Shown: piece by piece, positions 4,101 to 6,302 of the stretch | How positions within the stretch are numbered: position 1 is the stretch's first letter | How the letters are laid out: every line of letters starts with the position of its first letter | Source: Flaccisagitta enflata | Lineage: Eukaryota | Direction: 5' to 3' | Assembly: GCA_965153355.1 (NCBI GenBank) | Contig: OZ231126.1 | Coordinates: 40,734,001 to 40,798,000, forward strand | DNA length: 64,000 bases | Program-made: the position numbers and the translations under genes | The notes under the pieces: model-generated | What the model saw: the letters and a program-made list of their open reading frames with translations, nothing else | Databases searched by the model: none | What the model was told of the DNA's origin: nothing

Positions 4101-6302
4101 TCGGTCCTTGAAAAGCCTAACACTCTTTATATTCACGGTCCAAGTAACAGCGGGTATGTTTATTTCTTATTCATTTAATTTATTCATTTGACCTACCTAC
4201 AAACCTACTGACAGAATTACTTCATCAGAAATCAGTATTATTGTCCTTTTGTGTCAAAGATTTCCAAATGTGCATTTTTTTTTCTCTCTTTTTTTTTCGT
4301 TATACAGAAAATCCTTTTTGACCAAGATGATCACCGAGGTACAGGGGTGTATAAAATTAGACACTTAACCCCCCCCCCTCCCTTTATAGATAAAGGTGGG
4401 GTATAAGTTTGATATTTCATGTTGCCTTTTTCATATTGCCCTCTTTATATTGCCCCTTTTATAGAAATAAAACAAATTACTGGGGATTAGGGGGGGGGGG
4501 TGTGGGTAAACACCGCGGGGGGGGGGGGTGGTAGCTTAATTTTATACACCCCTGTAGGTGCATGCAACGTGTTTACTAAATAACGAATCATCACAATTCG
4601 CGTTTGAACGCTTGACCGAGGTGCACAATATCGTATGGGCAGAGGAACTCAGGTGAGGGTGTCAATTAAATGGCTATGAAATGTAAACTTTCTAACACTA
4701 TGTTCAAAAATTTTGTATTGCCATAGTTCACATCCTTACCTGAGTTCCTCGGCCCAACCCCATTTATCATTCCAGATTGAATTTTCTCAACCTCTCTCAG
4801 CTGAAACAGCTCATGGAGGGTAAGAGGTTTTCCAAAGCTTTTATTTCATAGTACAATACTTTAGATTTTTTACCCATTTACAATAACATGTAAATCACAT
4901 ACTCATATTTACACCTGGAATATTCAAAATTATTATCTCAATTGTGATCTTTTTCCCCACACTCCTTATTTCCCCTCTACCCTCCCCCATTCCATTCTCT
5001 CTCTCTCTCTCTCTCTCTCTCTCTCTCTCTCTCTCTCTCTCTCTCTCTCTCTCTCTCTCTCTCTCTCTCTCTCTCTCTCTCTCTCTCTCTCTCTCTCTCT
5101 CTCTCTCTCTCTCTCTCTCTCTCTCTCTCTCTCTCTCTCTCTCTCTCTCTCTCTCTCTCTCTCTCAATTCAAGGTTCCACCTTCGCGATAAACAAAAAAG
5201 GACGGGCCTCATCCAAGAGGAGCGCCCCCTTCAAGACCATCGGCAAGATTTGAGATTCATTGGGCCAATTATGAGAAATGTGTTTACTCTCTGTGACATT
5301 AGTTATACATCTCCATATAGGAATTTTGTAATTACTCCCTAGCTACAACATGGCCGGATACACTGCTACCACATTCGCGTGTGGATGGGCAGGAGCAGTG
5401 CTGGAGAAGGTCACCAGGGCATTTGGGCAGGAGCCACATTCTAAAAAATCTCAAAAACGCCAATAAAATAAAACGGGGACCAACCAACCAACCAACCAAC
5501 CAACCAACCACCCGACCAACGGACCTACATAGCGGGGTGTAGAGTCGCGTAGCGCGCAACTGAAAATTCCTACATAGAGATGTATAACTAATGTCACAGA
5601 GAGTAAACATATTTCTTATAATTGGCCCGGTGATTCTCAAATCTTGCCAATAGTCACCTCAAATCACTCCCTCGAGGAGCATGCGCCCAATTCTCGCGAA
5701 CTTCGCGCGTTGGAGTGTCGGTGCTACCAACTCAACCTCAGGTAAAGGCATACATGAAAATGAAATAGTTTAGACTAAAATGAAAAAAATGGCCTGGTCT
5801 GGCCTGGGTTTAAACTAAAATGAGAGAAATGGCTTGGTCTGGCCTGGTTTTTTATAACTATTGCCCCCGTTTTACTCTATATATATATTATTCTAATATA
5901 CGCCACTCTACAATCCGTTTTGTCAGTCGGTTGGTCCGTCTATCCATCCGTCCATCCTTCCGCCCACTGGCTTGTTATTCCATCGGTCCGCCGGTCCGTC
6001 GGTCTGTCTGTCCATCTCTTTAATACATTTTGATGCATCTAATCCTCTCTTTTCCTCTGCTACACACTAGGGCACCAATCAAGAAGATGACCAAGGCGCA
6101 ATGGCAAGCGAAGTCGCATCAAGAGAAACTCGACATCAAGGCGAAATACGAATTCTCCCCAGAGGAGGAATTTCGCTGGATTCCACCAGCTCCTCAGGTC
6201 GTGGGACCAGCCACTTTGCTTGGATTGTGGTTGCGCTACTTTCCCCTCCATGCGAACCCAGACCCCATCATGCCGGACCAGCCATTGCAACACAGGACGT
6301 AA
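1170..6302 (+). CDS. Spliced superfamily-3 helicase, parvovirus NS1-like, ~570 aa
   Basis: Phase-compatible exons 1577-1683, 1847-1965, 2092-2274, 2420-2552, 2678-2795, 3191-3267, 3375-3441, 3666-3803, 4004-4153, 4308-4338, 4558-4652, 4776-4819, 5174-5242, 5654-5741, 6071-6302 join without a stop; first exon 1170-1234 tentative. Motifs: Walker A NTLYIHGPSNSGKS, FAFERL, Walker B IVWAEE, B' LKQLMEG, motif C TIVTSN, arginine finger ALECR. Introns GT-AG except 5243-5653 (GC-AG). Confidence 0.9.
2824..3008 (+). mobile_element. Helentron/DINE-1-like short element, family B (example copy, inside a helicase intron)
   Basis: TTTAGTCGCGTGCTACGCGACT palindromic start, (CCGT/CGGT)n tract, end GCCCCTGCCCACCCGCACGCGAC...GCCGTGTATC..CCTTGTT. 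Related copies near 5347-5562, 11755-11958, 23507-23652, 28944-29150, 33609-33815, 44910-45116, 48735-48940. Confidence 0.7.
4340..4556. mobile_element. MITE filling helicase intron 4339-4557
   Basis: Perfect 20-bp inverted repeat TACAGGGGTGTATAAAATTA (4340-4359 / 4537-4556), i.e. TA-flanked CAGGGGTG termini of Tc1/mariner style. Confidence 0.8.
5235..5655. repeat. ~93-bp inverted repeat bracketing the GC-AG intron 5243-5653
   Basis: 5235-5327 is the reverse complement of 5563-5655 with scattered mismatches; a DINE-like repeat (~5347-5562) lies between the arms. Confidence 0.9.

Follow-up and report, generated by a model that had tools for sequence, protein, structure and literature searches.

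Introners, spliceosomal introns that arose from transposable elements, have been described in Micromonas, Aureococcus, dinoflagellates and other lineages (PMC9860276, PMC12130899; review PMC11282704). According to Gozashti et al. 2022 (PMC9860276), their hosts are mostly aquatic, ranging from copepods to protists and including TARA metagenome genomes, and their splice sites can come partly from a duplication or from the neighbouring exon. Introners, some of them in viral genes integrated in host genomes, are already published, as Gozashti et al. 2025 record (PMC12130899). Here we describe a short element bearing terminal inverted repeats (TIRs) that lies in a putative helicase gene within a 64 kb stretch of DNA, analysed as a whole and referred to below as the window. 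The element is like introners in being co-extensive with a GT-AG interval, in taking its putative splice sites partly from flanking bases and in that its removal would leave the coding sequence intact. Introners, however, comprise many similar copies at different intron positions, with splicing confirmed by RNA-seq, whereas here we find one site that was multiplied together with its host repeat, with no second site or spliced read seen in the material searched and with a duplication that would have to be either GG or absent. The element might already figure in published introner family lists, including those from copepod and TARA genomes.

A TA beside a TIR that starts with CAG is the signature of Tc1/mariner/pogo elements, and our element shares with Tc1/mariner-type (Stowaway-like) MITEs a length of about 200 bp, lack of coding capacity, perfect TIRs starting with CAG, a TA on both sides and strong hairpin potential. 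Unlike those MITEs, it would carry 4 nt too many for an intact frame if TA had been duplicated, and no other copies of it turned up in the databases searched. Fritillaria borealis MITE-derived introns and the nonconventional introns of euglenids have mostly non-GT-AG ends and need altered splicing (PMC11282704). The present case resembles theirs in that the TIRs pair the intron ends, the borders carry duplication-like repeats and the host belongs to the marine plankton, but the ends are canonical GT-AG here. A second element, in exon 6, has non-canonical ends. The host gene, for its part, resembles the SF3 helicases of the parvovirus NS1/Rep type and their endogenous copies in having a GxxxxGKS Walker A and, 36 residues on, a hydrophobic run followed by EE. 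Unlike them, it has at least five introns, its single exons find no related match in Pfam, PDB or HMMER searches, and no motif C (conserved Asn) was identified before the point at which the gene is truncated.

Anatomy of the element and arithmetic of its insertion

The core of the element (4342-4554, delimited by reading the sequence and by an inverted-repeat search) is 213 bp long, non-coding and 44% GC, and ends in perfect 18-bp TIRs. The left arm (4342-4359, plus strand) reads CAGGGGTGTATAAAATTA and the right arm (4537-4554, minus strand) is its exact reverse complement, with imperfect extensions to 4378 and from 4518, respectively. A TA borders the core on each side, at 4340-4341 and at 4555-4556; the left one either stems from duplication of a TA target site or opens a 20-bp TIR as its first two bases. 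With the TAs included, the inverted repeat is perfect over 20 of 20 bp and continues imperfectly to 39 nt (82% complementary), and the longest stop-free stretch in the resulting 217 nt is 46 aa. One more base at either end, G at 4339 and G at 4557, yields an interval of 219 nt (4339-4557) that starts with GT and ends with AG. The first-pass annotation had noticed that GT and AG overlap the TAs of a 20-bp perfect inverted repeat, and the sequence bears this out; it had overlooked that the element is also flanked by GG at 4338-4339 and GG at 4557-4558, a candidate 2-bp direct repeat in which the second G on the left is the G of GT and the first G on the right is the G of AG.

Allowing up to three mismatches, the terminal 18-mer matches three times in the window, namely at the two arms and at one 3-mismatch site at 60287, against a mean of 0.07 matches in shuffled controls, none of which (0/100) reached three. 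As RNA, the region 4329-4567 is predicted to fold at -104.1 kcal/mol (z = -5.08, with 0/200 shuffles as stable), its termini being paired. Elements of the hAT, PIF and piggyBac groups leave duplications of 8 bp, 3 bp and TTAA, respectively, and are ruled out by flanks without repeats of those lengths. We know of no superfamily characterized by a 2-nt duplication other than TA.

The gene that surrounds the element runs on the plus strand, with exon 2 at 4004-4153; exon 3, of 31 nt, at 4308-4338, ending in GAG on a codon boundary; exon 4, of 95 nt, at 4558-4652, open in the frame beginning at 4558 and in no other (two stops in each of the remaining frames); exon 5 at 4776-4819, flanked by GT-AG introns of 123 and 354 nt; and exon 6 at 5174-5234, where a second TIR element interrupts it. 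The 219-nt interval would be intron 3, with a 5' end GAG/GTACAG and a 3' end CCTGTAG/GTG, so that the boundaries of the element coincide with canonical splice sites, the TA-element-TA unit sitting one base inside each end. The reading frame is continuous apart from the interval, which is added to it exactly and contains seven in-frame stops. Removal of the interval had been said to restore the frame, which holds insofar as removal is exact and takes out the stops; there is no shift to mend, since 219 is 3 x 73. In the spliced reading, exons 2-6 run through 132 codons without a stop. Four other canonical-looking GT-AG intervals in the gene have pyrimidine-rich 3' ends and one of them splits the Walker A motif, so that the layout is that of a spliced gene. 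The donor of the putative intron 3 is weak, GTACAG differing from the consensus GTRAGT at +4, +5 and +6, and UUAAU, about 18 nt upstream of the acceptor, could serve as branch site. Note that in the RNA fold both candidate splice sites are buried in the perfect 20-bp stem, which could hinder their recognition.

Whether one takes out the GT...AG interval or 4340-4556 together with one GG, the remaining string is identical, and the arithmetic fits an exact addition of 219 nt, with either a GG duplication or none. Imagine instead that TA had been duplicated: the pre-insertion sequence would then have been 4 nt longer than the spliced form and out of frame, and codon 20 of its 43 would be a stop. 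An empty site would carry a surplus of 4 nt under TA duplication, while the GG duplication or its absence is exact, and the same holds for the mRNA, which insertion followed by splicing would leave precisely unchanged in the latter cases and off by 4 nt in the former. The first-pass annotation had combined a TA duplication with a restored frame, but the two are mutually exclusive, and TA duplication is disfavoured if the reading frame was intact. As to background frequencies, 131 of the 3491 TA sites in the window (3.8%) stand in a G-TA-G context, and GG makes up 4.6% of its dinucleotides.

The host gene and the repeat that carries it

Walker A motifs follow the pattern GxxxxGK[ST], and Walker B motifs consist of a hydrophobic run and then acidic residues. 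The first pattern is found here as GPSNSGKS, split by intron 2 into GPSNSG/KS, its first six residues closing exon 2 and exon 3 providing the completion (G-KS); the second appears as IVWAEE, 36 residues after GKS, in the Walker-B-like IVWAEEL that ends exon 4. In AAV Rep, Walker A and B are equally far apart, a parallel that we do not use as evidence. The element had been placed between Walker A and B, correctly so, with the additions that Walker A is itself divided by an intron and that the second motif is Walker-B-like. The nearest named Atlas cluster to exon 2 is Parvo_NS1/PPV_E1_C (score 0.77, sub-threshold), in which 30% of the members bear PF01057 and 17% bear PF00519.

Pfam, run on 15 pieces of the window, returned no family for exons 2, 4 and 7 or for 3601-3804, where the exon preceding exon 2 lies. 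The protein searches used single exons, with correspondingly limited sensitivity. Exons produced no match in PDB; exon 2 produced none among the longer proteins of a 5.8-billion-protein collection, and against 1.84 billion representatives HMMER gave four hits at E <=0.001, each of which its Pfam content (ankyrin/NACHT, zinc finger, DUFs) marks as unrelated. A 58-aa ORF containing exon 3, compared with proteins of near length with the aim of finding the 81-aa ORF of an empty site, likewise matched nothing. A 19-residue match in IMG/VR falls in a 232-aa ORF that has no Walker A and stands beside a 592-aa ORF read as a phage structural gene, and is attributed to chance, and of 102 pattern matches to the helicase in JGI metagenome contigs none was confirmed. 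The motifs, together with the one weak Atlas lead, suggest an SF3 (parvovirus-NS1-like) helicase. The earlier designation as a viral gene rests on these same grounds; Pfam, PDB and three single-exon protein searches gave it no credible match.

The copy of the helicase gene in the window is truncated by the second TIR element (5235-5655, 421 bp, with 93-nt arms of 90% identity in the inverted-repeat search), which introduces an in-frame stop (TGA, 5251-5253), lacks GT-AG ends and is flanked by a repeat of at most 1 nt. Given that it lies in exon 6 and has no splice-site ends, plain insertions into exons of this gene do occur. The convergent neighbour on the minus strand (6704-10592) is a decayed copy of an intronless 1297-aa ORF, with 93% identity for P0001 and 67% for P0002, and is broken into eight collinear pieces in alternating frames. 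The ORF may encode a protein-primed family-B DNA polymerase, a lead taken from an Atlas score of 0.92; Pfam assigned it no family, showing only a C2H2 finger below the cut-off, P0001 has no match in IMG/VR, and a PDB search with P0001 retrieved only zinc-finger chains.

Four sequencing runs were compared with the stretch: X1, X7 (DNA), X11 (metatranscriptome) and X24 (polyA RNA). Contigs of X1, which is possibly the source sample of the window, run across both ends of the element with no differences, one over the 5' junction (3960-4500) and one over the 3' junction (4519-4985). A 372-nt contig from X11 (4140-4513) crosses the 5' junction and is unspliced through intron 2, exon 3 and that junction, and a second X11 contig (4652-4985) retains introns 4 and 5; metatranscriptome libraries such as this one may contain DNA. 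From X7, a contig at 4520-4608 spans the 3' junction. Since junctions are bridged by contigs of X1, X11 and X7, the insertion is not an artefact of assembly. None of the 12,162,974 polyA RNA reads (about 6% of the run) from X24, in which the presence of the organism is not established, lies on the stretch.

In X7, 210 contig pieces align to 1026 nt, 120 of them at >=99% identity, 57 at 95-99% and 33 at 90-95%. Because 90 of the 210 pieces are variants, we regard the stretch as a multi-copy repeat in a marine organism. Unitigs of X7 identical to the window reach a depth of about 4,500-5,400, a value uncalibrated against a single-copy stretch, and the claim is accordingly limited to "multi-copy". 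The element is present at this site in one or more diverged copies as well: a variant X7 piece with two differences bridges the 3' junction, so that some of the divergence among copies, at the least, came after the insertion. Neither the spliced form nor the joints of an empty site are listed for the four runs, and helicase copies that lack the element, which the first-pass annotation had proposed to look for along with junction reads, were likewise not seen there, though diverged copies were detected; the sole contig from an RNA library that spans the 5' junction is the unspliced one.

The search for other copies of the TIR, proposed at the same time, yielded none in the window, IMG/VR or JGI metagenome contigs. 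The rest of the 64 kb window holds no second copy of the element, and the 20-mer of the TIR has no match in IMG/VR. In JGI metagenome contigs the 18-mer matches 27 times, and all 27 matches are due to chance, having no partner arm (at best 5-8 mismatches in 18) and no homology outside the 18-mer. Summed depth in X7 over the element (about 15,500-19,200, bins 4345 to 4484) lies within the range of the flanking bins (about 1,000-20,900) and thus gives no sign of many extra element copies. A dispersed multi-copy family, with copies forming introns at unrelated positions, was therefore not found in the window, IMG/VR or the metagenome contigs, and to call the element a MITE in the sense of a mobile family, or a member of a family that makes introns, is unproven for the collections searched. 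The description as an intron that is exactly one MITE is supported in part: the TIR element equals the GT-AG interval to within one base at each end, but no second copy and no spliced read were seen in the material searched.

Accounts of how the interval arose

The explanation we tentatively favour, while placing it somewhat short of probable, is that the TIR element entered an exon of the helicase gene, was spliceable from birth and was copied with the repeat. A short, non-coding, MITE-like TIR element would have landed in an exon of an SF3 (parvovirus-NS1-like) helicase gene with introns, the gene being part of a virus- or transposon-like repeat that a marine eukaryote has in multiple copies. 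Its arrival would have added exactly 219 nt, either as the 217 nt TA...TA plus a 2-nt GG duplication or as 219 nt with no duplication, and since it was exact, the added DNA would begin with GT and end with AG. The element would most likely have been born as a removable U2-type intron, with donor GAG/GUACAG and acceptor UGUAG/G, the 20-bp terminal stem bringing the two splice sites together, and would then have been carried along as copies of the repeat grew in number and diverged. The window's own copy is dead by now, since the second TIR element truncates the gene. We infer, on this account, that the interval is or was spliced, that insertion created the intron, that the gene is an SF3 helicase, and that the TAs are element ends and not a duplication. 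In its favour are the anatomy, the exactness of the addition, the spliced-gene layout with exon 4 open in a single frame, the low chance frequencies of G-TA-G and GG, the stable fold with paired termini, the variant X7 piece with the element and no listed empty site, and the published introners with borrowed splice sites or in integrated viral genes. Against it stand the unspliced RNA-library contigs with no spliced form seen in the four runs, the weak donor and buried splice sites, the failure to find other copies in the collections searched, the Tc1/mariner-like ends, the second TIR element in exon 6 and the decay of the neighbouring gene copy. What had been suggested as a snapshot of the gene gaining an intron fits the locus poorly: it is a multi-copy repeat, a diverged copy has the element at the same site and the copy in view is truncated. 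If the interval is spliced, it would nonetheless let the birth of an intron by insertion be seen cleanly at one locus, a virus-derived gene in a marine eukaryote, with splice sites made half of element ends and half of target, and would fit the published idea of aquatic organisms and integrated viral genes as introner hot spots. If it is unspliced, the case reduces to a transposon insertion of the ordinary sort, in a repeat copy that is dead.

This last scenario is a serious contender, to which we would still assign less than an even chance: a transposon inserted into an exon of a dead helicase copy, or killed the copy by inserting, is not spliced and has its GT-AG ends by coincidence, the copy later being passively propagated within a repeat that is non-autonomous or was amplified segmentally. 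The second TIR element in exon 6, with its in-frame stop and ends unlike splice sites, is a plain insertion in the same gene; the neighbouring 1297-aa ORF lies decayed in eight pieces, the window is dense with foldback and TIR structures (30 inverted pairs), the sole contigs from an RNA library are unspliced, and the weak donor and the position of the splice sites in a stem point in the same direction. Chance frequencies of 3.8% for G-TA-G and 4.6% for GG are, moreover, not negligible if many insertions are screened. Against this scenario, a TA duplication requires an ancestor that was already frameshifted by 4 nt precisely where the element went in, a coincidence beyond the 3.8%; with GG or no duplication the exactness is explained, yet the GT-AG ends are still a coincidence of about 1 in 20. 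The other exons are intact, the other four intervals resemble real introns, and no element-free copy was detected despite the presence of diverged copies.

A bolder version of the insertion-born intron, which we consider unlikely, would make the element an introner of an undescribed kind, with its own TA...TA ends and a 2-nt or no duplication, so that landings on GG give perfect GT-AG introns, and would have it ride in a virus-like unit. It is on the same low footing that we suggest, jointly with that idea, a vehicle composed of the SF3 helicase and the protein-primed-polymerase-like gene and abundant in a marine plankton organism. Were this true, it would supply a concrete vehicle for moving intron-making elements between genomes.

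It is also improbable, in our estimation somewhat more so, that the 219-nt unit moved in already as an intron, through intron transposition by reverse splicing or through capture during double-strand-break repair, with the TIRs and TAs as cargo from the donor. Such a transfer would account for an exact addition of 219 nt with GT and AG at its very ends, for the GAG/GTG site and for a direct repeat of no more than 2 nt, and PMC9860276 reports introner families without duplications or TIRs and an ambiguity between duplication and insertion site. A donor copy, however, was found neither in the window nor in IMG/VR or the metagenome contigs, and the mechanism is unproven in animal or protist lineages that can be linked to the window.

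We give little credence to an older intron at the codon boundary, within which a Tc1/mariner-type MITE landed with a TA duplication and whose remainder was later lost. TA flanks and a TIR starting with CAG do suit Tc1/mariner anatomy, and the gene clearly tolerates introns. Only one base is left on each side, though, so that the intron before insertion would have been GTAG, 4 nt long, unless precise deletions occurred on both sides, and no TIR-free intron was seen at the site in any diverged copy. An assembly artefact or chimeric join can virtually be dismissed: C and G homopolymer runs within the element do break contigs at 4500-4519, and contigs show length variants at 4369, 4490 and 4517, but the junctions are bridged in X1 (perhaps the source sample, with no differences) and in X7 and X11, which come from other studies.

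Further foldback structures

Around the boundary of exon 4 and intron 4, the sequence 4636-4756 forms a hairpin that is an inverted duplicate of that boundary (arms 4636-4668 and 4724-4756, 85%). An Rfam match to MIR4416 in intron 4 scores 30.4 bits against a gathering score of 70 and is taken to reflect the hairpin only. Foldback and TIR structures are dense throughout the window, which contains 30 inverted pairs with arms of >=18 nt.

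Anatomy of the element and its junctions

From 4340 to 4556 the sequence reads, in order, TA, an 18-nt arm (4342-4359), a 177-nt interior, the exact reverse complement of that arm (4537-4554) and a second TA, with the arms extending imperfectly to 39 nt at 82% complementarity. With G at 4339, just ahead of the first TA, and G at 4557, just after the second, the 219-nt interval 4339-4557 starts with GT and ends with AG. The inverted repeat is far beyond chance: in the window the 18-mer matches the two arms and, with three mismatches, a site at 60287, whereas shuffled sequence averages 0.07 matches (three matches in 0 of 100 shuffles). 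The 217 nt of 4340-4556 are non-coding, with no run of more than 46 aa free of stops. Folded as RNA, 4329-4567 reaches -104.1 kcal/mol (z = -5.08; equal stability in 0 of 200 shuffles), with paired termini and a 20-bp stem that takes in the two putative splice sites.

The first-pass annotation had noted that this terminal inverted repeat (TIR) element is coextensive with a GT-AG interval, and both the sequence and contigs across the junctions bear this out. The junctions are no assembly artefact, because contigs from other sequencing runs bridge them: in X1, possibly the window's own source, contigs cover 3960-4500 and 4519-4985 with 0 differences, and bridging contigs are also found in X11, a metatranscriptome (4140-4513), and in X7, a set of DNA contigs from organism A (4520-4608). 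The further description as a MITE, and hence as a member of a mobile family, finds no such backing: no second copy was detected in the rest of the 64-kb window, in IMG/VR or in JGI metagenome contigs. The 27 matches to the 18-mer in JGI contigs were discarded as chance: none has homology past the 18-mer, and none a partner arm, the best candidates differing at 5-8 of 18 positions.

The host gene and its surroundings

The element lies in a candidate gene on the plus strand with five GT-AG intervals under the standard code: 3804-4003 (200 nt, donor GTAATA), 4154-4307 (154 nt, GTATGT), the interval around the element at 4339-4557 (219 nt, GTACAG), 4653-4775 (123 nt, GTGAGG) and 4820-5173 (354 nt, GTAAGA), most of them with pyrimidine-rich 3' ends. 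Once joined, exons 2-6 are stop-free for 132 codons. GPSNSG at the end of exon 2 and KS from exon 3 build a Walker A pattern across an intron, and exon 4, which is free of stops in just one frame, closes with IVWAEEL 36 residues past the GKS. Judged from sequence, this layout is as would be expected for a spliced SF3-type helicase gene; the assignment to the SF3 family is weak. Queried singly, exons 2, 4 and 7 and the stretch with the exon upstream of exon 2 returned no Pfam family, and exons 2 and 4 no PDB match; when 1.84 billion representatives were searched by HMMER with exon 2, four matches came up, all unrelated and discarded. The sole pointer to a family is a cluster in Atlas, a protein-cluster resource, in which PF01057 occurs in 30% of members and PF00519 in 17% (score 0.77, rated a lead).

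Two further features of the gene deserve mention. The intervals of 219, 123 and 354 nt (4339-5173) are all multiples of three, so that exons 3-6 share one genomic frame; such a run may be chance (1 in 27). Intron 4 holds a 33-nt inverted duplicate (85%) of the exon 4/intron 4 boundary (4636-4668 versus 4724-4756), which covers the donor site as well as the codons of the Walker-B-like motif; the two arms pair as a hairpin, with an Rfam match to MIR4416 far below threshold (30.4 bits versus 70).

Exon 6 is broken by a second TIR element (5235-5655; 421 bp, arms of 93 nt at 90%), so that the gene copy in the window is truncated ahead of the expected motif C region. This second element introduces an in-frame TGA at 5251-5253, is without GT-AG ends and has a flanking repeat of at most 1 nt, and a helicase-like open frame restarts just past it. 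Its interior has short modules common to other repeats in the window.

Convergent with the helicase-like gene, on the minus strand, lies a decayed ORF copy (6704-10592) in eight collinear pieces of alternating frames. The full form, a 1297-aa intronless ORF, is intact on ENA contigs (P0001, 93% identical; P0002, 67%). It has no Pfam family and carries one C2H2 finger. As a lead only, Atlas (0.92) gives clusters that either bear the name DNA-directed DNA polymerase or have PF03175 on 34% of members; on that lead the product may be a protein-primed family-B DNA polymerase (pPolB). Side by side, an SF3 helicase and a pPolB would be reminiscent of bidnavirus-like or polinton-like gene sets.

Elsewhere the window contains near-identical duplicate segments (29005-29998 and 33669-34662), which share two ORFs (138 and 174 aa), and a 619-bp TIR element (62010-62628; ends CACAGTG...CACTGTG) with ACTA on both flanks. 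It is very rich in microsatellites and triplet repeats, including (CT)n, (TG)n, (CAA)n and GACGGAC-type repeats, and dense in foldback structures, with 30 inverted-repeat pairs of at least 18 nt.

Copies and RNA-library contigs in sequencing runs

The segment 3990-4830 is present in 20 of the 24 listed runs, most of them marine metagenomes, with runs of organism A besides; nine have at least half of its words, and five of the carriers are recorded as RNA. Four runs (X1, X7, X11 and X24) were compared against 3960-4985. In X7, 210 pieces fall on this stretch, 120 at 99% identity or above, 57 at 95-99% and 33 at 90-95%, and unitigs identical to the window have a depth of about 4,500-5,400, a figure with no single-copy control. 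From these counts and depths it follows that the whole of 3960-4985, exons and introns alike, is a multi-copy family in organism-A DNA. The family appears very homogeneous, which suggests recent amplification. One X7 variant piece with two differences spans the 3' junction, so the insertion predates some, at least, of the divergence between copies. At a 5% threshold the only substitution listed in X7 is 4411 G>A, beside changes of length in the C and G runs.

No joint across the element is listed in the four runs, neither an empty site nor a spliced form; neither junction reads nor helicase copies without the intron, two of the checks put forward at first pass, were seen in them. In X11, whose library may contain DNA, one contig is collinear with 4140-4513, and hence unspliced over intron 2, exon 3 and the 5' junction, and a second, at 4652-4985, retains introns 4 and 5. 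The X11 contig matching 4652-4985 is 672 nt long, carries 328 nt of unrelated sequence upstream (contig coordinates) and breaks from the window at the exon 4/intron 4 boundary; the break at 4652 suggests that the repeat is arranged differently at some other place. X24, polyA RNA of organism A, has 0 of 12,162,974 reads on 3960-4985 and provides no test, the organism's presence in that run being unproven.

Insertion arithmetic and competing readings

A codon boundary falls at both the end of exon 3 and the start of exon 4, and TA target-site duplication is a feature of Tc1/mariner elements. If the TAs were such a duplication, the insertion would have been 215 nt, whereas GT-AG removal takes out 219; the ancestor would have exceeded the spliced form by 4 nt and met a stop at codon 20 of 43. 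The first-pass annotation had combined GT and AG overlapping a TA duplication with removal restoring the frame. Given 215 nt added versus 219 removed, the two cannot both be history, although the 219-nt removal is itself frame-exact. GG stands on each side of the element, and deleting 4340-4556 together with one GG yields exactly the spliced string. Either, then, an intact frame gained exactly 219 nt (with GG duplication or none), or an element that duplicates TA landed on a 4-nt frameshift already there. The former requires an insertion mode that we can place in no known superfamily; the latter requires a coincident frameshift in addition to a G-TA-G context, itself a 3.8% chance (131 of 3491 TA sites in the window). 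The TA-versus-GG arithmetic offers a sharp test.

The element may have been born as an intron and at least formerly removed as one, a reading to which we give slightly less than even confidence. In its favour, the 219-nt addition is exact, canonical ends would arise by chance at only ~4-5% of sites, the host gene has other introns, and a diverged copy also has the element while no element-free copy was detected. Against it, the four runs contain no spliced molecule and the RNA-library contigs are unspliced, the donor is weak and shares the stem with the acceptor, the searched data give no sign of an element family, the same gene has a second, plainly non-intronic TIR insertion, and the neighbourhood is decayed. 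An unspliced transposon insertion into an exon of a helicase copy, with GT-AG ends by chance, is a serious contender that we consider quite possible, at rather below even confidence. Transfer or capture of an intron is improbable, and invasion of an older intron by the element more improbable still; with its junctions bridged, an artefact is very nearly negligible.

How does intron birth compare with known cases? Introns derived from transposable elements (introners) are already well described. According to PMC9860276, their splice sites can come from the element, the duplication or the neighbouring exon, most insertions do not alter mRNA length, and hosts are mostly aquatic, ranging "from copepods to" protists. 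PMC12130899 places introners in viral genes integrated in host genomes, and PMC11282704 summarises MITE-derived introns with paired ends for Fritillaria and euglenids. The structure here is neat, but the concept is published, splicing is unseen and the locus is a damaged member of a family of repeats. The proposed introner-like gain has partial support: the ends coincide with canonical GT-AG sites, whereas neither splicing (the X11 contig crosses the 5' junction unspliced) nor, in reachable data, copies at other intron positions were seen. The element is at best one more case of such introns and not yet to be called an introner. Its boundaries, like those of introners, coincide with splice-site sequences (4339-4557), and mRNA length would be preserved exactly with GG duplication or none, but with TA duplication the spliced form would fall 4 nt short of the ancestor.
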